From: Dyella sp.
GTDB lineage: Bacteria > Pseudomonadota > Gammaproteobacteria > Xanthomonadales > Rhodanobacteraceae
Assembly: GCF_035685805.1 (NCBI RefSeq)
Contig: NZ_DASSAB010000049.1
Location: forward strand, 1 to 64,000
Reading direction: 5' to 3'
Length of the DNA: 64,000 nucleotides
Both the position numbers and the translations under genes were made by a program. The notes beneath the pieces were generated by a model that did no database searches, had not been told where the DNA came from, and saw only the letters and a list, made by a program, of their open reading frames with translations. How positions within the stretch are numbered: the first letter of the stretch is position 1; each line of letters begins with the position of its first letter. Shown piece by piece: positions 5,696-44,975 of the stretch.

Positions 5696-8017
5696 ATGTC
5701 GCCGGCGGGGACAAGTCGATCGACCGTAGCGAGCTGCAGCGTGTTCCTGCTGCTCGGCGTGCTGGCGGTGCAGTGGTGGCCGGCGCTGCCGCGGGGCACG
5801 GCGCTCCTGGTGTTGCTGGTCGCCCTCGTGGTGCTGGCCGCAGTGGCGGCGCGCTGGTCGCTCACCCGACCGGCCGCATGGATGATTCTCGGCATTGGCT
5901 GGTCGGTGTGGTGTGGCGCCAGCGCGATGCAGGCGCGCCTGCCGGTGCCGCTGGAAGGACAGGATCTCGTGGTGGTTGGCCGTGTGCTGGGGCTGCCTGA
6001 TCCGGCCGCCGATGCCACCCGGTTCCAGCTTCAGGTGCTTGCGGCCAGCCAGGCGGGGCGGCCCGTGCCGCTGCGTGGGCGCGTGCAACTGGCCTGGTAC
6101 GACGATGCGCCGCCGCTGGCGCCATGCGAACGCTGGCAACTGCGGCTTCGCCTGAAGCGTCCGCGCAGCATGCTTGACCCCGGTGGTGCCGACACCGAGC
6201 GCAGTGCGCTGCAGCGGGGTGTCGTCGCGGTGGGTTACGTCCGCGAGGATCCAGCCAACAAGCGGCTGGGGCGCCGGTGGTGCATACACGAGGTGCGAGC
6301 ACGGCTGGCGCAGGGCATCGAACTGAGGGTGCCGGATCGGCACGACGCCGCTTTGCTGCGTGCGCTGGCGCTCGGCGACGTGCGCGGCCTGGATCCGGAC
6401 GACTGGTCGGTGGCCCGGGCCAACGGGGTGTCGCACCTGCTGGCCATCTCCGGCTTCCACGTCGGCGTGGCGGCGGCCTTCGGCGCATGGGGAGTCATCG
6501 CGATCTATGCGCTGTGGCCTGCGCTGGCACTGCGTTGCCCGCGCGTCCAGGCGCAGGCGGGCGGCGCGCTGACAGCAGCCGTCGCCTACGGCGCGCTTGC
6601 TGGCATGGGGCTGCCGACGATGCGCACGCTGCTGATGATTGCCGTGGTGGTGGCCGCCCGTGGCTGGCGTCGCCACGTGCGCGCAGGCCACGGCCTGGCG
6701 CTGGCTATGCTCGTGCTCTTGCTGTCCGATCCGCTGGCGGTCCTGTCGGCCGGCTTCTGGCTGTCGTTCGTGGGGGTTGCCTTCCTGATCCTGTGCCTGA
6801 CCGAACACGCGCATGGGCTGCGCGGCATCGTGAAAGGCCTGACCACCGGGCAGTGGGTGATGACCCTTGCGCTGCTGCCGCTGAGCCTGTGGTTCTTTGG
6901 CCAGACCTCGCTGGTGGGCGGGCTGTCGAACCTGGTTGCCGTGCCGGTGGTCAGTTTCGTGCTCGTGCCGCTGGCCTTGCTCGGCGTGCTGGCCTTGGTG
7001 ATATGGCCGCCGTTCGCCGTGTGGCCGCTGTCGCTGGCCGCGCACGTGGCCCATGGTCAGTGGTGGCTGCTGCAGCGCATCGCGGCATGGCCCGGCGCCA
7101 GCTGCTACCTGCCCAGCGTCAGCGTCTGGGCGCTGGTACTGGGCATGCTGGGCGCACTGTGGCTGCTGGCACCGCGCGGCATCCCGACGCGCTGGCTCGG
7201 CGCCATGTTGTTCCTGCCACTGCTGTGGCCGCAGTTGCCACGCCCGGCGCCTTCGGCCTTCGAGGCGTGGGTGCTGGATGTGGGGCAGGGGTTGTCGGTG
7301 GTGGTACGCACGCGCGGCCACACGCTGGTCTACGACACCGGAGCACGCTATCCCTCTGGCTTCGACATCGGCGCTGCGGCGGTGGTGCCGAGCCTTCATG
7401 CCCTGGGGGTGCGGCGGCTCGACATGCTGGTGGTCAGCCATGCCGACAACGACCACGCCGGCGGCGCCGGTGCGGTGCTCGCGGCCTACGCTCCAGGGCG
7501 CCGACTGGCCGGGGAGCCACGCCGCATGCCCTCGCCGATGGCCGGCTGCCACGCAGGCCAGGCGTGGACGTGGGACGGCGTTCGTTTCTCCGTACTCGGT
7601 CCGCTTGACGATACCGGGGCAGGCAACGACCGCTCCTGCGTGCTGCTGGTGGACGGCGGGGCGGATCGCCTGCTGCTCACCGGGGACATCACCAGTCGGG
7701 TCGAGTCGGCTGTTGCTGCCGCGTTGCCGTCGGGCGGGTCCGTGGTGATGACCGTGCCGCACCACGGCAGCATGACCTCCTCCAGCGAGCCTTTCCTGAC
7801 CGCGGTAGCGCCGTCGCTGGCCGTGGTTTCGGCAGGCTGGCGCAACCGTTTCCGGCATCCGCGGCCGCTGGTCGTGGCCCGCTACGGCGCAGCCGGGGTG
7901 CCGTTGCTGAACACTGCGACCGCTGGCGCCATCCAGCTGAGCTTCCCGGCTCGTGGCCACGCGCGGGTCGTGCGCCAGGAGCGACAGCGGCAGGCGCGCT
8001 ACTGGCGCGAGAAATAA
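5696..8017 (+). CDS. comEC: DNA internalization-related competence protein ComEC/Rec2
   Basis: Multi-TM N-terminal competence domain and C-terminal metallo-beta-lactamase fold (VVSHADNDHAGG). Start is uncertain: TTG at 5654 or ATG at 5696. Confidence 0.85.
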   Translation: MSPAGTSRSTVASCSVFLLLGVLAVQWWPALPRGTALLVLLVALVVLAAVAARWSLTRPAAWMILGIGWSVWCGASAMQARLPVPLEGQDLVVVGRVLGLPDPAADATRFQLQVLAASQAGRPVPLRGRVQLAWYDDAPPLAPCERWQLRLRLKRPRSMLDPGGADTERSALQRGVVAVGYVREDPANKRLGRRWCIHEVRARLAQGIELRVPDRHDAALLRALALGDVRGLDPDDWSVARANGVSHLLAISGFHVGVAAAFGAWGVIAIYALWPALALRCPRVQAQAGGALTAAVAYGALAGMGLPTMRTLLMIAVVVAARGWRRHVRAGHGLALAMLVLLLSDPLAVLSAGFWLSFVGVAFLILCLTEHAHGLRGIVKGLTTGQWVMTLALLPLSLWFFGQTSLVGGLSNLVAVPVVSFVLVPLALLGVLALVIWPPFAVWPLSLAAHVAHGQWWLLQRIAAWPGASCYLPSVSVWALVLGMLGALWLLAPRGIPTRWLGAMLFLPLLWPQLPRPAPSAFEAWVLDVGQGLSVVVRTRGHTLVYDTGARYPSGFDIGAAAVVPSLHALGVRRLDMLVVSHADNDHAGGAGAVLAAYAPGRRLAGEPRRMPSPMAGCHAGQAWTWDGVRFSVLGPLDDTGAGNDRSCVLLVDGGADRLLLTGDITSRVESAVAAALPSGGSVVMTVPHHGSMTSSSEPFLTAVAPSLAVVSAGWRNRFRHPRPLVVARYGAAGVPLLNTATAGAIQLSFPARGHARVVRQERQRQARYWREK

Positions 8018-19093: not shown

Positions 19094-19720
19094 ATGACCG
19101 AGCCCCAGAACCCGCTGTCCCGCCTCGACTGGGCCAAGGGCGACGGCCTCTTGCCCGCCATCGTGCAGCACGCACTCAGCGGCGAAGTGCTGATGCTGGG
19201 ATACATGAATGCGGCGGCGCTGGAGGCGACACGGCAGACCGGCCACGTCACTTTCTTCAGTCGCTCCAAGCAGCGGCTGTGGACCAAGGGCGAGAGCTCC
19301 GGCCACGTGCTGGCGGTGCAGTCGATTCGTGCCGATTGCGACGCGGACACGCTGCTGGTGGGTGCGCTGCCCCACGGCCCAACCTGCCATACCGGCACCT
19401 CGAGCTGCTTCGGTACCGACGTCGTCCCGCCGCTCGGCTTTCTGGGCGAGCTGGATGCGCTGGTGGCGCAACGTCATGCCGAGCGTCCCGAGGGCAGCTA
19501 CACCACGCGCCTGTTCGAGGGCGACATCCGCCGCATTGCGCAGAAAGTCGGCGAGGAAGGGGTCGAGACCGCGCTTGCGGCGGTGGTGCAAGGCGACGAA
19601 GAGCTGCTGGGCGAAGCCGCAGACCTGATCTTTCATCTCATCGTCGCGCTGCGCGCGCGCGGGCTGTCCTTGCGCGAGGTAGCCGACGTGCTGTCCGCCC
19701 GGCACGCCGCCCGCCAGTGA
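19094..19720 (+). CDS. hisI: Bifunctional phosphoribosyl-AMP cyclohydrolase / phosphoribosyl-ATP pyrophosphatase
   Basis: 208 aa; HisI domain ([11 protein letters not shown]) followed by HisE domain. Confidence 0.88.
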
Positions 19721-19918
19721 CTGCGCCAAGCAGGCCACCCGCCTGTTGGGCGATTGCCCGCAGTCCTAGTTTCACGGCGTAGCGGCGGGCGCCACTCCGG
19801 TGTGGTGGCGGCGGGGAACCTGACTGCCCGAGCGGCCCGAGGGAGCCGGGTATGTGCTGCGGATTCGCTGCCGTTGCCGCATACTCGCCCCTGGGGTGGG
19901 GGAACTCCTGAAAGCGCG

Positions 19919-19932
19919 GTTCACGTGAACCC
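19919..19932. promoter_or_regulatory. Perfect 14-bp palindrome GGTTCACGTGAACC in the 570-bp intergenic region upstream of the NfeD/flotillin operon
   Basis: Read directly; dyad symmetry typical of a dimeric transcription-factor site, ~360 bp upstream of the 20291 start. Confidence 0.3.
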
Positions 19933-20290
19933 GAGACAGCGTTTTTGAACGGGCGAACCCACGTGTTCTGCGCCTTGTGCAGGCCTGACGGCGAGACGTG
20001 GAAGCGTCTGCCGCAGCCGGCCAGCGGCGCTGCCGGGGCGACGTCCGAGACGGCGCTCCGCATGGCAGGGAAGACCGCATTGAAGCCAACGATGGCGTCT
20101 GAAGTCCTCAACCGCGTGGTGTTGGCCGCGGTGGTGTCCGACGGCTCGCGCAGCGCGTCTGGAGGCTCCTCGCCGCACTCTCTTGCCGCCAGTGCCCGGC
20201 TCGCCTTCACGAGCCGCATCGGCTCGGCACGCCTGCCTGCACCCTTGGCGCAGCCGTTTGCCCGGCCAGTCGTTGCACCGGTTGCCCGTC

Positions 20291-20956
20291 ATGCATGAGT
20301 TCCTCCAGACCTGTCTCACCTTCCCGACCGTGGTCTACAGCGTGCTGCTGGCGTTCTGCGTGGTGTACTGGCTGCTGGCCATGACCGGCCTTTTTCATGT
20401 CGACGCAATGGACGGCCTGCTGCTGGGGGACGCTCACGCTGCGCACGGCATGCCCGGGCATTCGGACGGGGTCGATTCGGTAGCCACCGCAGGCGTGCTC
20501 GCCAGGCTCGGGCTCGCCCGGGTGCCGATCATGATCGTGCTGACCGCGCTTTCCTTTTTTTGCTGGCTGGGCACGTACTTCGTGCACCTGGCGCTGCTGG
20601 GGCATCTGTCCCAAGGTTTACGCGTACTGGCCGGCATCGGAACCCTGCTTGCGGTGCTGGTACCCGGCGCGCTGCTGACCTCGTTGCTGCTGCGGCCGCT
20701 CAGCCGCTGGCTGGCCAGGCTGCAGTTCTCTGCCAACGCATCGATCATCGGCCGCGTGGGCACGGTGATCTCGCCCCAGGTGGACGCGCAAGGCGGGCGT
20801 GCGGCGTTCGACGACGGCGGCGCCGGCCTCATCCTGCAGGTGCGGTCGTCTGCCGGCGAAACGCTGGCGCGCGGCGAACGCGTGGTGTTGCTGTCGCATG
20901 ACGCCCAGGCGCACACCCACGCCGTGATTTCCGAAGCCGAATTCAACCAGCGCTGA
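20291..20956 (+). CDS. NfeD-like / YqiJ-like inner-membrane protein (TM helices plus C-terminal OB-fold beta-barrel)
   Basis: 221 aa from ATG 20291 (an alternative in-frame start at 20183 exists). Several hydrophobic helices, then IIGRVGTVISPQVDAQGGRAAFDDGGAGLILQVRSSAGETLARGERVVLL resembling the NfeD C-terminal OB-fold. Sits 5' of a flotillin gene as in yqiJ-yqiK and yuaF-floT. Confidence 0.5.
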   Translation: MHEFLQTCLTFPTVVYSVLLAFCVVYWLLAMTGLFHVDAMDGLLLGDAHAAHGMPGHSDGVDSVATAGVLARLGLARVPIMIVLTALSFFCWLGTYFVHLALLGHLSQGLRVLAGIGTLLAVLVPGALLTSLLLRPLSRWLARLQFSANASIIGRVGTVISPQVDAQGGRAAFDDGGAGLILQVRSSAGETLARGERVVLLSHDAQAHTHAVISEAEFNQR

Positions 20957-21016
20957 CCTGTCCAAACGGCCGGGCGCAGTAGCCACGGCACAACGATTCC
21001 CGCAAAGGAGCAACCC

Positions 21017-22975
21017 ATGTCACTTCCTCTTGTCCTCCCGTTTGCGATCGGGCTCGGCGTCCTGCTGCTGCTCGCGCTCGGCGTGTTCGGCCTCTTCAAG
21101 GCGTTCTACCGCAAGGTCGACCAGGGCACTGCGCTGATCGTCAACGACCTGAGCTCGCAGCCCAAGGTGCACTTCACCGGGGCGTTGATCATTCCGGTCT
21201 TGTACAAGGCCGAGGAAATGCAGATCAGCCTGATCACCCTGCAGGTGGATCGCCGCGGCAAGGAAGGCCTGATCTGCCGCGACAACATGCGTGCGGACAT
21301 CGCGGTGGCGTTCTATCTGCGGGTGAACGAAACCGCGGCCGACGTGCTGCGCGTGGCCAAGGCGGTGGGCGCGGCACGCGCCTCGGACCGCAATGCGGTG
21401 GAAGAACTGTTCAACGCCAAGTTCTCCGAGGGCCTGAAGACGGTCGGCAAGCGCTTTGAATTCATCGAACTGTTCGAGAAGCGCCAGGAATTCCGCGATG
21501 CGATCGTGGACGTGATCGGCAAGGATCTCAACGGCTACGTCCTCGAGGACGTGGCCATCGACTACCTGGAGCAGACGCGCAAGGCGGACCTGGATCCGAG
21601 CAACATCATGGACGCGGAAGGTATTCGCAAGATTACCGAGCTCACCGCGATGCAGAACGTGCGCACCAACGAGCTGGAGCAGAACGAGCGGCTCTCGATC
21701 ACAAAGAAGAACACCGAAACGCGCGAAAACATGCTGCAGATGGAGCGCCAGCAGGCCGAAGCGGTGGCCAAGCAGAAGCGCGAGGTCGCCACGGTGGAAG
21801 CGCGCGAGGAGGCCGAGACCGCCAAGGTTCGTGAAGAGGCGCGGCTGGTGGCGGAACGTGCGCGGCTGGAGTCCGACGAGCAGATCAAGATCCGCGAGCA
21901 GGAACAGCTGCGCCAGGTCGAAGTGGCCGAGCAGAACCGCCGGCGCGCGGTGACCATCGAGGTCGAGCGCGTTGCACGTGCGGGCCAGCTGGAGCAGGTC
22001 ACCACCGATAAGGAAGTGCAGCTGCAGGGCGTCGAGCGCGACAAGGTGGTCGAGCAGGGTCGCATGGACGTGGCCAACGTGGTGCGCGAGCGCACCCAGA
22101 TCGAACAGACGGTCGCCGTGGCCGAGGAGAAGATCAAGGAGACCCGCCAGGTGGCCGAGGCCGATCGTGCCAAGCAGGTGGCGATCCTGGCGGCGGAGGC
22201 GCAGGCGCAGGAAAAGCTGGTGATGGACGTGAAGTCGGCCGAGGCAGCGGAGCAGGCGGCGCGCCACCGCGCGAACGAGCTGACGGTGCGCTCCGAGGCC
22301 GAGCTGGTGGCGGCAGGCAAGCAGTCCGAGGCCAAGAAGATCATCGCCGAGGGCACCCGCGCAGAGCGGGCCGCACCCGGCCTGGCCGATGCGCAAGTCA
22401 AGGAGGCCATGGCCGGCGCGATCGAGAAGACCGGCGTGGCCGAAGCGCGCGTGATCGAGTCCAAGGCGGACGCCAACTACAAGCAGGGCAACGCCGAGGC
22501 CCGGGTGCTGGCCGAGCGCCTTGAAGCCGAGGCCGGCGGTCAGGCCAAGATGGGCCAGGCCAGGGCCGATGCCACCATGGCGATGGGCGTGGCCGAAGCC
22601 GATGCCGTGGGTCGCAAGATGTCGGCCGAGTCCGAGGGCCTCACGTCGAAGTTCGAGGCGATGGGCAGGATGAGCCCGGAAGCGCGCTCGCACGAGGAGT
22701 TCCGCATGCAGCTGGAGACGACCCTGCGGCAGGTGCTGGCGACGCTGGAAGCGGGCAAGGAGGTGTCCCGCGAAAGTGCCGGCGTCATCGGCCAGGCACT
22801 CCAGGGCGCGAACATCGAGCTGATCGGTGGCGACGGCGGCGTGTTCGATGCGTTGACCAAGGGCATGTCGATCGGCAAGGCGATCGAGGGCATCACCGGA
22901 TCCAGCCCCGCGATGCAGCAGCTGCTGAGCAAGCTGACCGGTGCGCCCGCGTCGGATCTGTCGGCCGAGGCGTGA
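21017..22975 (+). CDS. Flotillin-like SPFH/band-7 protein (YqiK/FloT-like) with long Glu/Ala/Arg/Gln-rich coiled-coil C-terminal region
   Basis: Strong AAGGAG RBS 7 nt upstream; N-terminal TM helix then SPFH domain (ALIVNDLSSQPKVHFTGALIIPVLYKAEEMQISLITLQVDRRG...CRDNMRADIAVAFYLRV); 652 aa. Confidence 0.85.
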   Translation: MSLPLVLPFAIGLGVLLLLALGVFGLFKAFYRKVDQGTALIVNDLSSQPKVHFTGALIIPVLYKAEEMQISLITLQVDRRGKEGLICRDNMRADIAVAFYLRVNETAADVLRVAKAVGAARASDRNAVEELFNAKFSEGLKTVGKRFEFIELFEKRQEFRDAIVDVIGKDLNGYVLEDVAIDYLEQTRKADLDPSNIMDAEGIRKITELTAMQNVRTNELEQNERLSITKKNTETRENMLQMERQQAEAVAKQKREVATVEAREEAETAKVREEARLVAERARLESDEQIKIREQEQLRQVEVAEQNRRRAVTIEVERVARAGQLEQVTTDKEVQLQGVERDKVVEQGRMDVANVVRERTQIEQTVAVAEEKIKETRQVAEADRAKQVAILAAEAQAQEKLVMDVKSAEAAEQAARHRANELTVRSEAELVAAGKQSEAKKIIAEGTRAERAAPGLADAQVKEAMAGAIEKTGVAEARVIESKADANYKQGNAEARVLAERLEAEAGGQAKMGQARADATMAMGVAEADAVGRKMSAESEGLTSKFEAMGRMSPEARSHEEFRMQLETTLRQVLATLEAGKEVSRESAGVIGQALQGANIELIGGDGGVFDALTKGMSIGKAIEGITGSSPAMQQLLSKLTGAPASDLSAEA

Positions 22976-23038
22976 GGTAGTGAGCCTGTCCACGCGACGT
23001 GCGCGCTCGCGCTTTCGCCTTCCAAGGACTGAACGAGC

Positions 23039-26000
23039 ATGACTGATCCGATCAACCGCGACGCCACCGACTCGCTGGACCAGGCGGTGGCGCAGGGCGG
23101 CGCCTACGAGGTGCTGCGCAAGCGCCTGACCGTGCAGGGGCGACGCCTGCACGAGACCGCCGAGGCGCTCAATGCCAGGCGTTTGCAGGAATTCGGCGAT
23201 TCCAGGATGGAGATCGTCGGCCGTCTGCGCGTGCGCAGCGAACAGAATGCGGTCGGTCGCGACATCGTGCAGGTCGGTGAGCTGCTGCTGTTCGGCTACA
23301 ACGTGTTTCTCGGCCTGAAGGCCAGCACCGCTGTCGCCGACGTGTTCAGCCTGTATCGCCTGGTGAAAACGGCCGAAGGTTATGACGTGACGCCGGTGGA
23401 GATCGCCGGCAGCTTCCTCGCCGAGCCGCAGTTCCAGCGCGACTTCAACGAGCTGTACGAGTACTACAAGGAAGCGCGCCTGCTGCAGCTGCAGATCAAG
23501 GAAGGCAAGCTGCTGGCCGCTTTTCAGGTGGGACTGAAATCGACCGACGCGCGCGTGTTCCGCTGGCAACTGTCGGCGCAGGGCGAGGTGAACTACATCG
23601 ACAGTCGCGGCGAGCGCGACATCGCGATGCCGCCGGCCTTCGATTTCGAGTGGGTCCGGGCAACCAAGGACATGGAAGTGAGCGGGCGCTTTCCGCACCT
23701 GAACATCCTGGACACCTTGTTCGTCGAGACCATCGGCGGCGACCTCACCATCAAGGTCGAGAACAACACCGAAACCGGTCAGGGCGTCTACAGCGAGCCG
23801 GTGGAGGATCGCACCCAGTCGCTGGACGACGCACAGGTGGCATTCGCACGCGTCGGTTCACTGATTCTGCTCAAGGTGCTGCCTTATCGCGAGGCGCAAT
23901 GGCGTGGGCTGGTGTTCAACACCACGACCGGCAAGGTCTCGCGAGTCGACGCGATCGTGCAGGCCTGCATCCAGTTGCCGGAAGACCACGGCATCATTTT
24001 TCCCGGCGGGTATTACCTGCAGAACGGTGAACACAAGGCGTTCGATGCCGCGGTTGCCGGCATGCAGTACAAGCGCACCATTCGTTCGCCCAACGGCGAA
24101 GACGTGCTCTATGTCTTCTATGAGCCGCAGGGCGGCATGGCTGCGCTGCTGGTCTACAACCTGGTTCAGCGCCAGCTGCAGCCGCCGATACTGGCGCACG
24201 GCCATGCGCAGTTGGCCGATGGCCGGATGGTGCTGTTCCACGCCGGCAACGATGAGCCCACCCGGGTGCACCAGATGCAGGTGTGGCAGACGCCGTTCAC
24301 GAGCGACGAGTTCGCGGCACAGCGTCCCCCCAGCGGCACCTTCATGGGGCGGATCGGCAACGCCGAATGGGTGCGGGCGATTTCCAATGTCTATGACCTG
24401 GCCCGCGACATCGCGAGCGAGGACGTCAATGCCCGGCGCTACGAACTGCTCGCCCACAACACCCGTCGCCTGTTCGACCTTCATCACTGGATTGACGACG
24501 AGCACGTCGACGGGCTGGCCAGCCTGCTCCACGAGGTGGCCGCGACCAGTGAATCGGTGCTGGACGAGTTCCAGAAGGTGGTGGAGATCCGGCGCCAGTC
24601 CGATCAGGCGATGGAGCAGGCCAGGGCACAGCATCGCGCGCTGCTTGGCCGCCTGCAGCCGGACGGGTGGACCCGGGTCGAGGACTATGTCACCGGCCTG
24701 AAAGAGATCGCTGCCCTGCGCGGGCATCTGTTGACGATCCGCGACTACCGATACATCGACACCGCTGCCCTCGACGCGATGTCGGACGAGCTGACGCAGG
24801 CACATGAGCGCGTCGGCGCCGCCACCGGCAGGTTCCTCTCCAGCGCCACGGTGTTTGCACCGTTCGAAAAGCGTGTCGACGAACTCGATCAGCTGGCCCA
24901 GAAAGTTGCCACGGCGACCCAACTGGTCGAATGTCTCGAACAGATGCGGACGATGTCCGCTGACATGGACATGCTGTCGGAGTTGCTGGCGTCGTTGAAG
25001 GTAGACGACCCGGCCCAGCGCACACAGGTGGTCGACCGGCTGTCGGCGCTTTACGCGCGGCTCAACCAGGCCAGGGCGCGTGCGGAGCTGCGTCGCAAGT
25101 CGCTCGGATCGGCCGAAGCGATAGCGCAGTTCGGCGCCCAGTTCACGCTCTTCGGCCAGTCCGTCACCAGCGCGCTGGGCATGGCCGGCACGCCCGAAAA
25201 GGCCGACGAACAGCTGGCACGGTTGATGGTGCAACTGGAGGAGATCGAGAGCCAGTTCGGTGAGCACGAGCAGTTTCTGGGCGACATCCTCGACAAGCGC
25301 GAGGAGTTGCTTGAGGCGTTCCAGAGCCACAAGCAGGTGCTGCTCGACGAGCGCCAGCGCAAGGCGGCCTCGGTGATGGATGCAGCGCAGCGCATCCTTG
25401 AGGGGCTTGGCAGGCGCACCGAACGCTTCGACAGCGCGGATGCGCTCAATGCGTTCTTCGCCAGCGATCCGCTGATCCAGAAACTGCGCGAATTGGTGTT
25501 GCGCCTGCGCGAGCTGAAAGACTCGGTGAAGGCGGATGATGTCGAGGCGCGGATCAAGGCCGCCCGCGACCAGGCGGTCCGCGCCCTGCGCGACCGCAGC
25601 GACCTGTTCGAGGACGGCGGGAACGTCATCAGGCTGGGGCCGCGGCACCGCTTCAGCGTCAATACCCAGCCGCTCGACCTCACCTTGCTGCCAAGGGGCG
25701 ACACGCTGGCTGTGCACCTCACCGGCACGGATTTCATGGAGCCGATCGAAAACCCGGAGCTGGCGGCGCTCGAGCCGTTCTGGTCCGTCTCGCTCGAATC
25801 GGAGTCGCCGGAGCTCTACCGGGGCGAGTACCTCGCCGGGCAGATGCTGGACGCCGCCGTCGCATCACGTGACGGCCTAACTCTGGCGCGCCTGCAGCAG
25901 CTGGCACAGGATCCCGATGCCCTGGCGAAGGCAGTGCGCGAGCATGCGGCGCCGCGCTACCGCGACGGCTACGAGAAGGGCATCCACGACCACGACGCAA

Positions 26001-28279
26001 CGCTGATTCTGAAGGCCCTGCTGCACCTGCATCGCACCGCCGGCACGCTGGTGCAACCACCGGCCGCGCGAGCGCTTGCTTTCAGCTTCTGGGCACGCTC
26101 CAAGGCGTCCAGCGACGAGTGGACGGCGCGCATCCGGACGGCACGCGCCATCGATGCGCTCAGCACCGGCGCCGCCGCACTGGCGGGACTGCACGACGAG
26201 CTGGCCGAGGCCATCCGCAGCGATGCCTGTTCGGAGCCGTGCGCCATCCCGCAGATCAATGCGCGGGCCGCCGATGCGGCCGTCTACCTTATCGACAGCA
26301 TTACCGGGGCAACCCCCGAGTTCGTGGCCAGCGCCAGCGCCGATGCGCTGGACAAGGCGCTGCGCGAAGCCCTGCGCGGCAGTGATGCCGGTGCGGTGTT
26401 CGAGGCAACCCTGGCGCAACACGAGCAGCGACCGCCGGTGCGATGGCTGCTGGTGCAGCAGGCGATCTCGGCGATCGCGGCACGGCCGGAGCTGGCCCGG
26501 CATGCACGCTTCGCCGCCGAGGCCGCTGCGCTCTACCTGCATGGGCGTGCGCTAAAGGTCACGGTGCGCAACGCGGACATGTCGGCGACAGTGACCGGCC
26601 TGCTGGGCCAGCACCCACGCATCGACGGCGGGCGGCTGGAGCTCTCGATCGATGACTCACTCGCGCGCTTTCGGCGACACCTGACCGAGTTCGTGCCGGG
26701 ATTCCAGCGCTACCTCGCGCTGCGCGCCGAAGTGGTCCAGCAGGAACGGCAGGCCATGCGGCTGTCCTCGTTTAAGGCCAGGCCGTTGACCTCGTTCGTG
26801 CGCAACCGACTGATCAACGAGGTTTATCTGCCGATGATCGGCGACAACTTCGCCAAGCAGATGGGCACCGCCGGCGAGGGAAAACGCAGCGACCTGATGG
26901 GTCTGCTGATGATGATTTCCCCACCCGGATACGGCAAGACCACGCTCATGGAGTACGTGGCACACCGGCTGGGCCTGGTCTTCATGAAGATCAACGGCCC
27001 TGCGCTGGGCCACGAGGTTCGTTCACTGGACCCGGCTCGCGCTCCCGACGCCAACGCCCGCGAGGAGCTGGAGAAACTGAACCTTGCGCTGGAAATGGGC
27101 AGCAACGTGATGCTCTACGTCGATGACATCCAGCACACGAGCGCGGAGTTTCTGCAGAAGTTCATCTCGCTGTGCGACGGCACGCGGCGCATGGAGGGTG
27201 TGTGGCGAGGCCAGACGCGCAGCTACGACATGCGCGGCAAGAAGTTCGCAGTGGTGATGGCAGGCAACCCCTATACGGAGTCGGGCGAGGTCTTCCGGAT
27301 TCCGGACATGCTGGCCAACCGCGCCGACATCTACAACCTCGGCGACGTGCTGGGCGGGATGGAAGAATCGTTCCTGCTCAGTTACATCGAGAACAGCCTG
27401 ACGTCGAACCCGGTGCTGGCGCCCATGGCCACCCGCGACATGGACGACCTCTACCTGCTGATGGACAAGGCGAGCGGCAAGGAGGTGTCGAACAACGCGC
27501 TGAAGCATGGCTACAGCGGCGCCGAGATCAACGAGATCGTGGCGGTGCTGCAGCGCCTGATGAAGGTGCGCGACATCGTCTACCGGGTCAACAAGGCGTA
27601 TATCGAGAGTGCTTCGCAGGCCGACAAGTACCGCGTCGAGCCTGCCTTCAAGCTGCAGGGCAGCTACCGCAACATGAACAAGCTGGCGGAGAAGATCTCG
27701 CCCGTGATGAACGACCCGGAGCTGCAGCAGATCGTGTCCGACCACTATCTGGGTGAGTCGCAGCTGTTGACGAGCGGAGCGGAGGAAAACCTGCTCAAGC
27801 TGGCCGAGATCCGCGGCATCATGAGTAGCGCGCAGCAGGCGCGCTGGGCGCAGATCAAGGTGGATTTCATGCGCAACAAGGCGATGGGCGGCGAGGAGGC
27901 TGACGTCGGCGGACGCATGGTGGCGCAGCTGGCCGACATCGCGGGCAATCTGCAGGCGCTCAAGCCGGCGGCAGCAGCGCCTGGCGCATCGGTGGACCCC
28001 GGCGCGGAAACGCTGCAGACGTCGATGTTCGACATCCTGCGCGCCACCCTGGCGCGGCAGAACATGCTCAACGAAGCGCTGATCGAACTGTCGGACCGGC
28101 TCGAGCAGGACACGGACGCGCCCGAAGCGGCCGTGGACAGTGGCAAGCGCAGGGCAAAGGCCAGGGAGGCGAGGGAGGTCGCGTTCGGTACCGAACTGGC
28201 GCGGTTGCGATTCCTGAGCGAACAGGCGCAGGCAGAGGCGTCGAAACCGGGTCAATCCGGCGAAGGGTCGCTCCCTTGA
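23039..28279 (+). CDS. Giant 1746-aa uncharacterised protein with a single MoxR/AAA_5-type (dynein-related) AAA+ ATPase module near aa ~1285-1440, flanked by long alpha-helical regions
   Basis: Uninterrupted ORF, 63 nt after the flotillin gene, with an AGGA RBS. Walker A MISPPGYGKTTLMEY (nt ~26925), Walker B VMLYVDDIQH (nt ~27122), and sensor-1/arginine region FAVVMAGNPYTESGEVFRIPDMLANRADIY matching the MoxR pattern NPxxExGxxxLPxAxLDRF. The N-terminal ~430 aa and the C-terminal ~300 aa have no family I can name. Confidence 0.75.
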   Translation: MTDPINRDATDSLDQAVAQGGAYEVLRKRLTVQGRRLHETAEALNARRLQEFGDSRMEIVGRLRVRSEQNAVGRDIVQVGELLLFGYNVFLGLKASTAVADVFSLYRLVKTAEGYDVTPVEIAGSFLAEPQFQRDFNELYEYYKEARLLQLQIKEGKLLAAFQVGLKSTDARVFRWQLSAQGEVNYIDSRGERDIAMPPAFDFEWVRATKDMEVSGRFPHLNILDTLFVETIGGDLTIKVENNTETGQGVYSEPVEDRTQSLDDAQVAFARVGSLILLKVLPYREAQWRGLVFNTTTGKVSRVDAIVQACIQLPEDHGIIFPGGYYLQNGEHKAFDAAVAGMQYKRTIRSPNGEDVLYVFYEPQGGMAALLVYNLVQRQLQPPILAHGHAQLADGRMVLFHAGNDEPTRVHQMQVWQTPFTSDEFAAQRPPSGTFMGRIGNAEWVRAISNVYDLARDIASEDVNARRYELLAHNTRRLFDLHHWIDDEHVDGLASLLHEVAATSESVLDEFQKVVEIRRQSDQAMEQARAQHRALLGRLQPDGWTRVEDYVTGLKEIAALRGHLLTIRDYRYIDTAALDAMSDELTQAHERVGAATGRFLSSATVFAPFEKRVDELDQLAQKVATATQLVECLEQMRTMSADMDMLSELLASLKVDDPAQRTQVVDRLSALYARLNQARARAELRRKSLGSAEAIAQFGAQFTLFGQSVTSALGMAGTPEKADEQLARLMVQLEEIESQFGEHEQFLGDILDKREELLEAFQSHKQVLLDERQRKAASVMDAAQRILEGLGRRTERFDSADALNAFFASDPLIQKLRELVLRLRELKDSVKADDVEARIKAARDQAVRALRDRSDLFEDGGNVIRLGPRHRFSVNTQPLDLTLLPRGDTLAVHLTGTDFMEPIENPELAALEPFWSVSLESESPELYRGEYLAGQMLDAAVASRDGLTLARLQQLAQDPDALAKAVREHAAPRYRDGYEKGIHDHDATLILKALLHLHRTAGTLVQPPAARALAFSFWARSKASSDEWTARIRTARAIDALSTGAAALAGLHDELAEAIRSDACSEPCAIPQINARAADAAVYLIDSITGATPEFVASASADALDKALREALRGSDAGAVFEATLAQHEQRPPVRWLLVQQAISAIAARPELARHARFAAEAAALYLHGRALKVTVRNADMSATVTGLLGQHPRIDGGRLELSIDDSLARFRRHLTEFVPGFQRYLALRAEVVQQERQAMRLSSFKARPLTSFVRNRLINEVYLPMIGDNFAKQMGTAGEGKRSDLMGLLMMISPPGYGKTTLMEYVAHRLGLVFMKINGPALGHEVRSLDPARAPDANAREELEKLNLALEMGSNVMLYVDDIQHTSAEFLQKFISLCDGTRRMEGVWRGQTRSYDMRGKKFAVVMAGNPYTESGEVFRIPDMLANRADIYNLGDVLGGMEESFLLSYIENSLTSNPVLAPMATRDMDDLYLLMDKASGKEVSNNALKHGYSGAEINEIVAVLQRLMKVRDIVYRVNKAYIESASQADKYRVEPAFKLQGSYRNMNKLAEKISPVMNDPELQQIVSDHYLGESQLLTSGAEENLLKLAEIRGIMSSAQQARWAQIKVDFMRNKAMGGEEADVGGRMVAQLADIAGNLQALKPAAAAPGASVDPGAETLQTSMFDILRATLARQNMLNEALIELSDRLEQDTDAPEAAVDSGKRRAKAREAREVAFGTELARLRFLSEQAQAEASKPGQSGEGSLP

Positions 28280-30126
28280 TCACGGGCCCGGCACCGGCAT
28301 CGGGGACCGGCGGCCCGGGAAACATCCCGGCGGATGACGGTGAACAACACCGTCGGCTGCAGCAGCAGGCTCGTGCCACGCTGGCGGCGTCGCCGGCACC
28401 GGGCCTGCTCGAGCACCTGCAGGCGATCCACCGGATCGTGCTGGCGGCGGAACCTGCCGCGCTGCGACGCAGCGTCGGGTGGCTGGGTCGTCTGCTGGGC
28501 CGAGATATCACGCTGCAGGTCGAGGCCAACGCCCTGCGCAGCGAGCTCGGGGTGCATGTATTGCAGGCCCGCCAGCAGCTAGGCCGGCTGGCCGAACATG
28601 ATCAACAACTGGAGGCCCTCGGCGTTGCGCTGCGCGCCGCGATCGAGGAACTCGATCGGCAGTCCAGCCGGCTTGTCGGCCAGCCTCCGACTGACGAGCA
28701 ACAGCGGGGGCTGCACCATCTGGCCACGCTGAGCACCAGCCTGAGCACGACCGCGAGCCACCTCGGACTGATGGTCATTCACCACCGGCAGCTGACCCAG
28801 CGGGCGCGGCGGATATTGCCCCACGTCGAAATGCTGCTCGACCAGCAGCGCATGCTCCGCGCCGGGCTGAGCGCGCAGGCGGCGCTTCAGGCAGCCATGG
28901 TTCGCTCGATTCCGTGCAGGACCTTGCATCGGATGCGCCGAGCGGAGCTCCACCGATTTCATTCTCTCCCGACGATTCCACGCCCCGATGAGGACGCTCC
29001 CATGACCGACCCCACCCCGAACGACCACCCGGCACCGATATCGCCGGCGCTAAGCGACGCAGCGCTCCGGGACCTGGGCCTCTCCACTGCGGACATCGAG
29101 CAGGTGATGGAGGCGGCCAGGGCACTGCAGGATCTCAGTCCCGGCAACCTTCACAGCTATGGTCGGGAGGCGGCCGGACGCACCACCACGTTCAGCACGC
29201 AGTTGCTGGAGAAGGTTCGCAATGCCGATCTCGACAGCAGCGGCGAAAAGCTGGGCGAGGTGGTGCGGATTGCCCGCAGCCTCAAGCTCGCAGGCCTGAA
29301 CGAGCGATCGAGCGTACCGATCATCGGTCCGTTGCTGGATCGCATGAAGGCCGGGAAAGGGGAGTTGGTGCAGCGCTACAGCACCACCAACCAGCAGATC
29401 GATCAGTTGATGATCGATGTCGGCAACACGCAGTCCACGCAGCAGCAGCGCGTGCGCGAGTACGACCAGATGCACGAGATCGTGCGCGAAGAGCGCCACC
29501 AGCTCGGCATCCACATTGCCGCCGGGCGGGTGCGCATCGGCGAGCTGCAGCAGGAGCTGGAGGCGCTGCGCGGTCAGGATGATCCGGACTCCCGCGTGCG
29601 CCGGGCGGAACTGGACAACGCGCTGCGCCTCATCGACAAGCGGGTATCGGACCTGCAGGTACTGCAGCAGGTGGCGGAACAGACCCTGCCGATGATCCGG
29701 CTGATCCAGGCGAATGCGATCCAGCTGATCGAGAAGTTCAGCGCGGTTCGGGACGTGACCATACCCATGTGGCGCAACCAGTTCGCGATCCAGTTGTCGC
29801 TGGCCGACCAGCGCAGCGCGGTGGAGCTGGCCAACGCCATCGACGACGCCAGCAACGAGCTGATGCGCAAGAACGCCGAGATGGTGCACGCGGCCACCGT
29901 GGGCGCGGCGCGTGCCAACCAGCGATCGATCGTCGACCTGGAGACGTTGCGCACCGTCAATGAGACGCTGATCAGCACGGTCGAGGAAGTGCGGCAGATC
30001 CACCGCGACGGCATGGCCGCTCGCCGGAACCTCGCCGCGGAAATCGTGGCCATGCGCGATGATCTGCAGAAGCGGCTCGCCCAGGCCACCAGTGATCAAA
30101 CCGATGTTCAGGAGACAGGTTCATGA
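28276..30126 (+). CDS. TelA-like (toxic anion resistance / KlaB family) protein; 616-aa ORF whose C-terminal ~374 aa (from internal ATG 29002) carry the TelA signature
   Basis: TTG start overlaps the giant gene's stop (TTGA). The C-terminal region has TelA-like blocks (TIPMWRNQFAIQLSL..., NELMRKNAEM, IVDLETLRTVNETLISTVEEVRQI). The N-terminal 242 aa are Arg/Gln/Leu-rich helical and could be an extension or a separate product. Confidence 0.6.
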   Translation: MITGPAPASGTGGPGNIPADDGEQHRRLQQQARATLAASPAPGLLEHLQAIHRIVLAAEPAALRRSVGWLGRLLGRDITLQVEANALRSELGVHVLQARQQLGRLAEHDQQLEALGVALRAAIEELDRQSSRLVGQPPTDEQQRGLHHLATLSTSLSTTASHLGLMVIHHRQLTQRARRILPHVEMLLDQQRMLRAGLSAQAALQAAMVRSIPCRTLHRMRRAELHRFHSLPTIPRPDEDAPMTDPTPNDHPAPISPALSDAALRDLGLSTADIEQVMEAARALQDLSPGNLHSYGREAAGRTTTFSTQLLEKVRNADLDSSGEKLGEVVRIARSLKLAGLNERSSVPIIGPLLDRMKAGKGELVQRYSTTNQQIDQLMIDVGNTQSTQQQRVREYDQMHEIVREERHQLGIHIAAGRVRIGELQQELEALRGQDDPDSRVRRAELDNALRLIDKRVSDLQVLQQVAEQTLPMIRLIQANAIQLIEKFSAVRDVTIPMWRNQFAIQLSLADQRSAVELANAIDDASNELMRKNAEMVHAATVGAARANQRSIVDLETLRTVNETLISTVEEVRQIHRDGMAARRNLAAEIVAMRDDLQKRLAQATSDQTDVQETGS

Positions 30127-30368
30127 AGGAACAACACAGCCACCTCGAGATCGCCATCGCCTCGATCAAATGCTTTCAGGATGACGGCCGGCTGGATCCG
30201 GCGGAACTCGATCAACTTGTTTCGATCGCCGAGCGCGATGGGTCGATCGACCCTGAGGAGGCGCGCGTGCTGGAGAGGATCATGGGCAAGCTCAGGCCCG
30301 AGGAGCTGGATGAGGCCATGCTTACGCGGGTCGAGGCGCTCCGGGCAAAGCTTCTGCCGCTGCTCTAG
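30123..30368 (+). CDS. TerB-like mini-protein (81 aa)
   Basis: ATG overlaps the TelA-like stop (ATGA). Duplicated DG(R/S)(L/I)DP.E...L..I motif (DDGRLDPAELDQLVSIAERDGSIDPEEARVLERIMG) typical of the TerB/DjlA-N superfamily. Confidence 0.5.
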   Translation: MKEQHSHLEIAIASIKCFQDDGRLDPAELDQLVSIAERDGSIDPEEARVLERIMGKLRPEELDEAMLTRVEALRAKLLPLL

Positions 30369-30614
30369 CCCTGCTTGATCCGGACGGCCCGCCGGGCGAC
30401 GCCGTTCGCCTGTTTCCCCGGTATGCCGCGGGATTCGCGCTCACGCTGGCCCGGCATCCCGGCATCCCGGCATCCCGGCCGCCGTGGCGGAGCGGAGGGT
30501 TCGTCCTCACCGCGCAAGGAATGAGCAGGCGGTGGTGCACCCGTCTCAGCGCAAGCGTTCGGGCTATCTAGCTGTGGAACGGAAGGCCTCGACCGGGAGA
30601 GTGTGCTCCCACGA

Positions 30615-31622
30615 TTACTGGGTCGCAGGTGCGCCGGTACGTTCGCCGGGTCGGAAGGGTAGCGGCGAGCCGGCGCGGATGCCCGCGCGCCATTTGGACA
30701 GTTGCTGTTCGATCCCCGCGCCCACCGCGATCTGTGGCTCGGACGGGGTGAGATGGTCGCGGGACTCCCAGCGGGCCACTTCCGCACTGGCGTCGCGAAA
30801 CGCCTGGACGGGATCAGGTGTGCGGTTGAGTGCGTCGACGAGCCATGCGCGGCCGAAGTAGGTGGCGTCGGAGTCGCTGCCGCAGCCGAACGAGGAGCGG
30901 TCGCTGCGGGCTGCGGTCATCACCAGGGTGCCATCCCCCTGCAGGGGTGAGACGAATCCGCCGGAATAGCAGGCGTTCACCACCACGACCTTCCACTTGA
31001 ACGGGTGCTCTTCCAGGATGCCGGCGAGGTCGCGGGCGCCGATCTGGTCCAGCGGCAGGGGATCCATGTCCACCAGCAGGTTGTGCTCCGGGTCGCCGTG
31101 GCTGGTGAGGTAAAGCATGAGGATGTCGCGCCGCGGGTCCATCACGCGCGACAGCGCAGTCAGCAGATTTTCCAGATTGCTCCAGCTGGCCAAGGGCAAT
31201 GTGTCGAGCGTTGCAGGGTTGTTGGCGAGTACCACGCTGTGAGCGCGCCGGCCGTAGCGCTGCTCGAACAAACGGGCCGCGTATTCCGCCTCGTTGCGGA
31301 AGACGTCTTCGCTGCCATCCCCGGCGAACGTCACCAGATAGAGGTTGGGTACGCCTGCGACAGGCGGTGTCAGCTGATCGAGCGCGCGCCGCAACAGGCG
31401 GGGCTGGGCGTAAAGCACCTGCTCGGGCGAAGGAGCATCGACGGGCCATCGGTCCGGGGGCGTATCCACGGGCTCGGCGTCGGCGGCTGTCTTCACGGCA
31501 GTTGCCGCCGTGGCCGGTGGGTGTGGCACGAGGACAGCGGAGGGTGGCGACTGGTGTGCCACCGTTGCGGTCAACGCCGCGCCGGTGGCGAAAGCGAGCA
31601 GGGCAGTGAGCAGCAAGCGCAC
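30615..31622 (-). CDS. Secreted peptidase C13 (legumain-like, caspase-fold) family protein
   Basis: GTG start at 31622; signal peptide MRLLLTALLAFATGAALTA; catalytic dyad context LYLTSHGD and VVVVNACYSGGF as in C13 peptidases; 16 nt downstream of mtnC on the same strand. Confidence 0.7.
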   Translation of the reverse strand: MRLLLTALLAFATGAALTATVAHQSPPSAVLVPHPPATAATAVKTAADAEPVDTPPDRWPVDAPSPEQVLYAQPRLLRRALDQLTPPVAGVPNLYLVTFAGDGSEDVFRNEAEYAARLFEQRYGRRAHSVVLANNPATLDTLPLASWSNLENLLTALSRVMDPRRDILMLYLTSHGDPEHNLLVDMDPLPLDQIGARDLAGILEEHPFKWKVVVVNACYSGGFVSPLQGDGTLVMTAARSDRSSFGCGSDSDATYFGRAWLVDALNRTPDPVQAFRDASAEVARWESRDHLTPSEPQIAVGAGIEQQLSKWRAGIRAGSPLPFRPGERTGAPATQ

Positions 31623-44854: not shown

Positions 44855-44975
44855 GCGGCCATGCTATCAGCGCGCCGTCGCGGCGCGCCCCGCGGGGTAG
44901 GTTCGCGTGAACCGATTCCCGGCGATTTGCTCAAGGTGTATCGCGGTCCGGCCCGTCTGCCGCTAAAATGCCTAA

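Follow-up and report, generated by a model that had tools for sequence, protein, structure and literature searches.

The cluster discussed here comprises five annotated open reading frames (ORFs) on one strand of a 64,000-nucleotide (nt) stretch of Dyella sp. DNA (contig NZ_DASSAB010000049.1, positions 1 to 64,000; hereafter, the window). Its genes encode a short NfeD-type membrane protein (g1), a flotillin-like protein (g2), a giant ATPase (g3), a TelA protein preceded by a putative truncated TelA paralog (g4a), and a candidate TerB-like mini-protein (g5). The cluster is probably a Lysobacterales variant, in an abbreviated form, of the PspA-associated module formed by a flotillin, an NfeD-type protein and a giant AAA+ protein, in which g3 would act as a remodeller of membrane-associated proteins. 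Its identity and a general role in envelope stress can be stated with high confidence. The specific remodeller mechanism is offered only tentatively, as a possibility that we would sooner doubt than assert. The evidence consists of orthology to Pseudomonas genes, a conserved gene order, overlapping stop and start codons, domain make-up and a recurrent linkage to PspA. The first-pass annotation, which was made from the sequence alone, had proposed a single membrane-associated, ATPase-containing unit tied to envelope stress, and this is supported by the co-conservation of g1-g2-g3 and by the PspA pair found upstream of them in relatives. By contrast, its view that the giant protein is part of no described flotillin system, and that the cluster is therefore undescribed, has to be abandoned, as an operon class reported by Ravi et al. 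in 2024 and the bac operon of Pseudomonas aeruginosa are the same module. Thus, the cluster is not a new class of system; the class has been described.

The class of Ravi et al. (PMC11237479) consists of a CesT/Tir-PspA pair with three further genes, including one for a three-transmembrane (3TM) YqiJ/YuaF protein. The operon also contains a band-7/flotillin gene and an AAA+ gene, with a PLD gene added in some Proteobacteria, and its abbreviated version, which lacks PspA, has the broader distribution. In the window, g3 corresponds to the AAA+ protein with an N-terminal helix or coiled coil and a beta-propeller (DUF3686), g2 to the flotillin gene, and g1 to the upstream 3TM YqiJ/YuaF protein. 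The CesT/Tir (DUF2170)-PspA pair of the 5′ side is missing from the whole window, so that only the abbreviated form fits. In addition, the description of the class makes no mention of TelA; the TelA pair and the TerB-like accessory are the window's own.

In P. aeruginosa, the module is the operon bacABCDEF (PA14_16140-16200, PA3732-PA3727), whose six genes are co-transcribed according to reverse transcription PCR (RT-PCR); mutation of bacA raises all the other bac products 6- to 13-fold, and biofilm formation, rhamnolipid production and virulence are impaired in bacA and bacB mutants (PMC10948618). This locus reads, in order, DUF2170, PspA_IM30, a gene for 213 amino acids (aa), one for 688 aa, a 1746-aa DUF3686 protein, PLDc_2, yaeQ, recJ and lasB. 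The triad g1-g2-g3 is equivalent to BacC-BacD-BacE in order and domain make-up, with identities of 38% between g1 and the 213-aa BacC, 59% between g2 and the 688-aa BacD, and 64% between g3 and the 1746-aa BacE (P0281). On the other hand, BacA (DUF2170), BacB (PspA) and BacF (PLD) belong to P. aeruginosa and are not in the window, whereas the TelA paralog, TelA and the TerB-like protein belong to the window, at the 3′ end where P. aeruginosa has BacF. A sigma-54 site has been proposed upstream of bacA, and none was found in the window. Another study lists PA14_16180 as PaFlo3, an SPFH protein whose gene shares an operon with that of the short NfeD protein PA14_16160 (PMC13086221). An NfeD-type membrane gene directly upstream of an SPFH gene, as in the window, is also the arrangement of YqiJ-YqiK in Escherichia coli and of YuaF-FloT in Bacillus subtilis.

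The core of the module is widespread. In a collection with one genome per species, at least 590 stretches match g3 (matches confirmed by tblastn), more than 6,300 homologs are found in a 90%-clustered protein database, and the N-terminal 700 aa match 887 clusters at 50% identity with E ≤ 1e-3. For the analysis of neighbourhoods, 80 loci were fetched and their six-frame ORFs searched with iterated hidden Markov models (HMMs); counts are given over 83 loci. The order and orientation of g1, g2 and g3 are preserved in 76-80 of the 83, across at least six phyla or classes, with g2 adjoining g3 in 80 and g1 positioned upstream of g2 in 76. The triad is intact in every locus with enough upstream DNA, locus L070 being the sole exception. 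Its carriers include Xanthomonadales, Pseudomonas, Xenorhabdus, Proteus, Gilliamella, Vibrio, Pseudoalteromonas, Marinobacter and Comamonadaceae, as well as Zetaproteobacteria, Myxococcota, the actinobacteria Planotetraspora and Nonomuraea, and a metagenome-assembled genome (MAG) of Clostridia. The flanks differ between these genomes, for instance his and mtn genes in the window, trp in Xanthomonas sacchari, and recJ and lasB in P. aeruginosa; thus, the module keeps its internal order in differing housekeeping surroundings. In the closest relative (locus L001, with a g3 that is 82% identical), the upstream DNA (5950-6204) does not contain the his operon but a PhdYeFM antitoxin-type gene, along with several small genes that have no Pfam match, so the module sits at different chromosomal sites even in close relatives.

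Other genes accompany the triad in part of the loci. A co-directional pair of DUF2170 (YjfI/CesT-like) and PspA_IM30 genes lies just upstream in about 36 of the 83, and the downstream accessories include a PLD-like gene in about 17 and a rhomboid gene in about 9. The g4a-TelA pair is present in 18, all of them Lysobacterales among the fetched loci, and absent from the other 65; a Lysobacter MAG (L006) carries all the accessories. None of PspA, DUF2170, PLD or rhomboid was detected anywhere in the window, where HMMs built from the DUF2170-PspA pair gave no match. When the co-conservation of the five genes was checked, that of g1-g2-g3 held, whereas the TelA pair proved restricted to Lysobacterales and g5 sporadic. 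In Pseudomonas and other gammaproteobacteria, rhomboid protease and PLD-like genes come directly after g3 (L013, 15217-16506; L015, L028, L029 and L076, among others), and the pairing of a rhomboid with an AAA+ protein may recall Derlin/p97, although this is only an idea. In Proteus mirabilis (L084, 1747-3518), a divergent pair of LemA and TPM_phosphatase genes lies just upstream of a bare g1-g2-g3; TPM-domain proteins are named as partners of PspA by Ravi et al. (PMC11237479).

Table 1. Features of the cluster and of its upstream spacer, in window coordinates.
Feature	Position	Strand	Description
g1	20291-20956	+	221 aa; short NfeD / YqiJ-YuaF type membrane protein, BacC (PA3730) ortholog
g2	21017-22975	+	652 aa; flotillin-like protein, BacD / PaFlo3 (PA3729) ortholog
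g3	23039-28279	+	1746 aa; giant ATPase, BacE (PA3728) ortholog
g3 beta-propeller (predicted)	23210-24289	+	residues ~58-417, core of DUF3686; AlphaFold 2 and Foldseek
g3 long helical region (predicted)	24305-26554	+	residues ~423-1172, including DUF7902; AlphaFold 2 secondary structure
g3 AAA+ module	26786-27478	+	single, residues ~1250-1480; MoxR/dynein/midasin class
Fourth ORF as annotated	28276-30126	+	616 aa; frameshift fusion of g4a and TelA
g4a	28276-28990	+	putative truncated TelA paralog, ~240 aa in relatives; TTG start
TelA	29002-30126	+	374 aa counted from ATG 29002; GAGGA 8 nt upstream
g5	30123-30368	+	81 aa; acidic TerB-like mini-protein
Perfect 14-bp palindrome GGTTCACGTGAACC	19918-19931	no strand	in the 570-bp spacer upstream of g1

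The protein at the centre of the module had been described as carrying about 1400 aa of unassigned, mostly helical sequence. This description is superseded, since Pfam places DUF3686 at residues 37-483 (E 7e-193), DUF7902 at residues 606-688 (E 1.2e-24) and AAA_5 at residues 1290-1413 (29 bits against a cut-off of 22), so that g3 is not mostly unassigned. An AlphaFold 2 (AF2) model of its N-terminal part (m230821fc3bf3; residues 1-1180, mean predicted local distance difference test score of 80.6) has a helix at residues 22-52 ahead of an all-beta domain at 58-417, followed by helices at 423-856, a small beta element at 880-903 and a second helical region at 928-1172. The all-beta domain is predicted to be a beta-propeller; its Foldseek matches in the PDB include the WD domain of DCAF1, paraoxonase and the propeller of prolyl-oligopeptidase, with a probability of 1.0. 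Whole-length matches to coat-type proteins built of a propeller and a solenoid (IFT-A, nucleoporins, the clathrin heavy chain and Vps18) were discarded, as template modelling scores of only about 0.1 give no evidence of relationship. A sequence search of the PDB with g3 gave matches only at the level of the P-loop, and the NCBIfam scan of the cluster products gave no informative match.

MoxR-class AAA+ proteins are chaperone-like remodellers. The AAA+ module of g3 belongs with them by its AAA_5 match and by its nearest structural neighbours, which are in the MoxR/dynein/midasin group. It has a Walker A motif (SPPGYGKTT, residues 1294-1302), a Walker B motif (LYVDDIQH) in which DD (D1362-D1363, window 27122-27127) replaces DE, a beta-hairpin ahead of sensor 1, and the motif NPYTESG...PDMLANRAD, which includes R1428. 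Walker A, the Walker B DD and the last motif are invariant among aligned g3 proteins that are about 26-84% identical to the window copy, and for this reason the label "MoxR-type" is reasonable. Nevertheless, there are two departures from MoxR-class chaperones, namely the DD in place of the canonical DE and the lack of a VWA partner, as the cluster contains no VWA-domain gene. Because of the first of these, ATP turnover by g3 may be slow, or else regulatory or regulated. Thus, the single dynein-related AAA+ module of the first-pass annotation is present, with a Walker B that is not canonical. Compared with NorQ, CbbQ and RavA, and with dynein and midasin, g3 is peculiar in being a giant protein of several domains with a single AAA+ module embedded at its C-terminal end.

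Membrane anchoring in the cluster is confined to g1 and g2, as hydropathy places transmembrane (TM) segments in these two products and none in g3, in either TelA-type product or in g5. The product of g1 has three hydrophobic segments (residues 4-38, 66-100 and 106-138) and a putative beta-rich C-terminal domain. An alignment of 26 orthologs supports ATG 20291 as its start and contains a conserved C-terminal motif, G..G.V...V....G.A...DGGAGL..V. Its match to Pfam NfeD (PF01957; E 0.056, 14 bits against a cut-off of 29) is sub-threshold, as is that of 2 of the 26 orthologs to YqiJ_N (PF21001; E 0.017). In turn, g2 is composed of a single N-terminal TM segment (residues 1-32), a probable SPFH/band-7 domain, a long Glu/Ala-rich coiled coil and a flotillin-type C-terminus. 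The window copy is too divergent, in comparison with other NfeD-SPFH pairs, for the Pfam Band_7 model (PF01145), and gave no match to it or to Flot even at E ≤ 10. Its SPFH identity is nonetheless probable, as 5 of 26 orthologs (46-71% identical) match Band_7, with a best E of 4.7e-11; moreover, 1 of the 26 matches Flot, and a Vibrio ortholog has a precomputed Band_7 match on record. The NfeD and flotillin labels are probable from orthology to BacC and BacD and from the Band_7 matches of g2 orthologs, although the window copies themselves fall below Pfam thresholds. A sequence search of the PDB returned nothing useful for g2 (as a single sequence and as a 26-sequence profile), for g1 (as a profile) or for TelA.

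Downstream of g3, the fourth gene had been annotated as a single TelA-like gene. A TelA gene is present, but the 616-aa ORF is, as read from its alignment with relatives, two genes joined by a frameshift. In L001 and in X. sacchari (L002), g3 is followed by a gene of about 240 aa without a Pfam match and then by a separate TelA gene of 365 aa, and the two are separate ORFs in 17 of 17 TelA-bearing genome relatives and in 50 of 50 metagenome loci. When the window is aligned with L001 at the DNA level, it has a 4-nt gap near 28908-28912, and translation in three frames shows the effect. The last 28 or so codons of g4a are consequently found in another frame (...SLDSVQDL...PDDSTPR*), with a TGA stop (28988-28990) at the position of the L001 TAA, and the ORF runs on into TelA because of the shift. 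The frameshift may be either a true mutation or an assembly indel. The TelA part, at residues 284-602 of the 616-aa ORF, matches the Pfam family of TelA, KlaB, YceH and Listeria lmo1967 (PF05816) practically end to end (profile positions 8-331 of 332; E 4.7e-69, 233 bits against a cut-off of 30), and it is 83% identical to the separate TelA of L001. As for g4a, a profile built from its separate ORFs matches TelA orthologs collinearly (24 bits, E 3e-8 in a small set), and hence it is read as a truncated TelA paralog. The two also have a RDV..P.W motif in common, and their pairwise BLASTP match is marginal (E 0.014).

The coupling of g4a to g3 is tight. In the window, the stop of g3 and the start of g4a overlap as TTGA at 28276; the overlap had been noticed before and is real, but the downstream gene is g4a and not TelA itself. 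In 15 of the 18 loci, an NTG start codon in frame with g4a (ATG, GTG or TTG) overlaps the TGA stop of g3, and in the remaining 3 the arrangement is TGATG, with one base shared. The 50 metagenome loci were found by a profile-based scan seeded only on the g4a motif [WF][WL]GRL[LI]GRD, which recovered relatives that a scan with a single g4a sequence had not. In all 50, TelA comes after g4a (in one, the contig ends first), and each locus with upstream DNA has g3 ahead of g4a; for this reason, g4a looks like a dedicated partner of the giant ATPase. In other settings, TelA has XpaC or TerB/C/D/E/Z as partners, whereas here it follows a truncated paralog coupled to g3. A distant triad in Vibrio sp. 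D431a (L085, 12502-15754), with a g3 that is 28% identical, lies beside genes for TelA, a ClpX-like AAA+ protein and a Dam-type methyltransferase. The TelA gene there is convergent and its product 25% identical to that of the window, so it is a lead only.

To our knowledge, the biochemical function of TelA is still undefined. In one study (PMC12791056), the family is linked to tolerance of tellurite and of cell-envelope antibiotics, disruption of Listeria TelA (lmo1967) increases nisin susceptibility 4-fold (Collins 2010, cited therein), and xpaC and telA form an operon in Listeria and Bacillus. No link of TelA with flotillin or NfeD was found in a search of the open-access literature, with the 2012 paper on Ter systems (PMC4104200) outside that search; the two papers it returned that mention TelA concern Theileria and have no bearing on this cluster. 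The giant ATPase is not a subject of study in PMC11237479, PMC10948618 or PMC13086221. Thus, what may be new is the Lysobacterales-specific arrangement of g3, g4a, TelA and sometimes g5, together with the recognition of g4a as an ATPase-coupled truncated TelA paralog, fused by a frameshift in this genome.

The remaining member, g5, had been called TerB-like, and this identity is a lead. The window copy (E 0.0076, 17.0 bits), the best ortholog, from Pseudomonas L013 (E 7e-5, 23.5 bits), and the copy in L036 (E 0.0022) all match Pfam TerB (PF05099), but each stays below the cut-off of 24.4 bits, and the matches span only about 30-50 of the 118 profile positions. The 81-aa gene is present in 12 loci and its position varies, as it can be found between g2 and g3, after g3 or upstream. 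Consequently, g5 is a sporadic accessory.

NfeD-SPFH pairs build oligomeric membrane scaffolds, and PspA/IM30 is a membrane-stabilising protein of the ESCRT-III type. On this basis, g1, with its three TM segments and an OB-like domain, would assemble with g2 into an SPFH cage or microdomain at the cytoplasmic face of the inner membrane, as in other NfeD-SPFH pairs. The soluble g3 would oligomerise through its MoxR-class AAA+ module and dock on the flotillin platform, where its beta-propeller and helical arm would bind helical membrane-associated proteins, that is, the TelA pair here and PspA in other lineages. ATP turnover would then assemble, remodel or recycle the bound proteins at a damaged or stressed membrane, in the manner of a chaperone or remodeller. 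The tight overlap of g3 and g4a suggests that g4a may be a stoichiometric adaptor or client of g3. Such a role would be analogous, not homologous, to that of Vps4 acting on ESCRT-III, in the sense that helical membrane-binding polymers such as ESCRT-III or PspA/Vipp1 would be served by a dedicated AAA+ remodeller. The AAA+ module of g3 lies outside the Vps4/classical clade and the protein has no MIT domain, and TelA is not known to polymerise. A further and rather doubtful extension is that a giant MoxR-class ATPase docked on flotillin has TelA-family proteins as its clients or adaptors, with g3-g4a-TelA as an unrecognised machine for membrane remodelling or repair and PspA as its equivalent elsewhere.

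Several observations weigh against the cluster being a PspA-type module with a remodelling ATPase. There is no PspA in the window, and any link to it is therefore indirect. The remodeller role of g3 is drawn from its context, and the Walker B is DD rather than DE in every member of the family that was aligned. In addition, the family assignments of g1 and g5 fall below Pfam thresholds, the scans identified neither a promoter nor a terminator for the cluster, and deletions of SPFH genes in P. aeruginosa, including that of PaFlo3, have little phenotype in laboratory conditions (PMC13086221).

Among the alternatives, the cluster could serve for quality control or extraction of membrane proteins, with an SPFH cage that encloses the clients, g3 as the enzyme that extracts or unfolds them, and rhomboid, PLD and TelA as lineage accessories. 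HflK/C-FtsH provides a precedent for an SPFH scaffold partnered by an AAA+ enzyme (PMC13220708), and the arrangement can be likened to FtsH inside HflK/C or to Derlin/rhomboid with p97. In about 9 loci g3 is followed by a rhomboid gene, and in about 17 by a PLD gene. Nevertheless, FtsH is a membrane-anchored protease, whereas g3 is soluble, has a beta-propeller and no protease domain, and carries a MoxR/dynein-class module that is not of the classical threading clade; its beta2-alpha2 stretch (KINGPALGHEV), as read from the sequence, lacks an aromatic-hydrophobic-Gly pore loop, and no rhomboid or PLD gene is present in the window. Extraction is therefore unlikely. The name "DNA repair ATPase", which NCBI and UniRef give to nearly all g3 homologs, would instead make the membrane genes mere neighbours. 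Pfam describes DUF3686 as an "ATPase involved in DNA repair", and there are weak matches to RuvB that cover only Walker A. However, this similarity is limited to about 45 residues around the P-loop, Pfam finds no nuclease, helicase or DNA-binding domain in g3, and g3 has only membrane or membrane-stress proteins as conserved partners; the literature search found no mention of DUF3686, PF12458 or DUF7902. The name and the Pfam description thus have no support in domains or gene context, and a function in DNA repair is hardly credible.

The first-pass annotation had also considered defence, and TerB, TelA and TerD domains, as well as PLD nucleases or lipases, do occur in defence contexts. A role in anti-phage defence or abortive infection through membrane disruption would accommodate the distant Vibrio sp. 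D431a triad, with TelA, a ClpX-like AAA protein and a Dam methylase beside it, and the 2012 Ter paper is cited by defence studies. Yet the sole match in PADLOC-DB v2 is a weak one to LmuB at residues 598-875 of g3 (E 9.8e-5, 19.7 bits), read as coiled-coil similarity, with none in the other four products; the flanks are housekeeping genes (his/mtn, trp, recJ/lasB), the gene occurs widely across P. aeruginosa, in a sequence cluster of 3,222 members, and no link between SPFH/NfeD and phage defence was found in the open-access literature. Defence is thus improbable. It is decidedly improbable, finally, that the TelA pair and g5 are an independent Ter-type module that adjoins the triad by chance in Lysobacterales. 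Such independence would agree with the 65 of 83 triad loci that have no TelA pair and with the fact that TelA also works elsewhere, as in xpaC-telA, but the stop of g3 overlaps the start of g4a in 18 of 18 loci, g4a is never away from g3 in the 50 loci seeded independently on g4a, and the g3-g4a-TelA arrangement persists despite differing flanks.

The interest of the module extends beyond this genome. Hundreds of species carry the core, among them P. aeruginosa, Stenotrophomonas maltophilia, Xanthomonas, Proteus mirabilis and Vibrio, and its central ATPase of 1,600-1,800 aa is spread in databases as a "DNA repair ATPase" even though its conserved partners are membrane or envelope-stress proteins. 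The Lysobacterales variant links TelA and PspA/flotillin, two poorly understood families of envelope stress, through one ATPase. Were TelA proteins its clients or adaptors, this would provide a first mechanistic context for TelA, with an AAA+ protein that cycles helical proteins on and off an SPFH platform, as well as a function for the misnamed family.

The ORF map of the window confirms the coordinates and flanks first annotated for the five co-directional genes. Upstream are hisA, hisF and hisIE (His_biosynth twice, then PRA-CH/PRA-PH), which end at 19720, and downstream, in convergent orientation, a Peptidase_C13 gene and HAD, ARD and Aldolase_II genes of the mtnC, mtnD and mtnB types. The G+C content is even over the whole cluster region. 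A 60-nt spacer with AAGGAG ahead of ATG 21017 separates g1 from g2, and one of 63 nt separates g2 from g3. The ribosome binding site reported as AGGA ahead of the giant gene is the AAGGA found 10 nt before ATG 23039, and the ATGA overlap reported for the TerB-like gene is likewise present at 30123, where the stop of TelA meets the ATG of g5.

No Rfam family was matched in 19500-31000. Promoter scans found neither a sigma-54-like nor a sigma-70-like site in the spacer upstream of g1, and the terminator-like matches in the cluster fall inside genes and are fewer than expected by chance. The palindrome in that spacer, which had been taken as a sign of dedicated regulation, does exist, but perfect palindromes of 14 bp number 13 in the whole window, and this one was not found upstream of the module in any other locus, including the 82%-identical relative, with whose spacer that of the window has no meaningful alignment. 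A role as a dedicated operator was consequently rejected. A copy of the palindrome with one mismatch, GGTTCGCGTGAACC, is found at 44900-44913. At the other end of the cluster, g5 stops at 30368 and the convergent Peptidase_C13 gene ends at 30615, and the 246-nt spacer between them contains a perfect tandem repeat of CCCGGCAT, in 3.8 copies, at 30450-30479.

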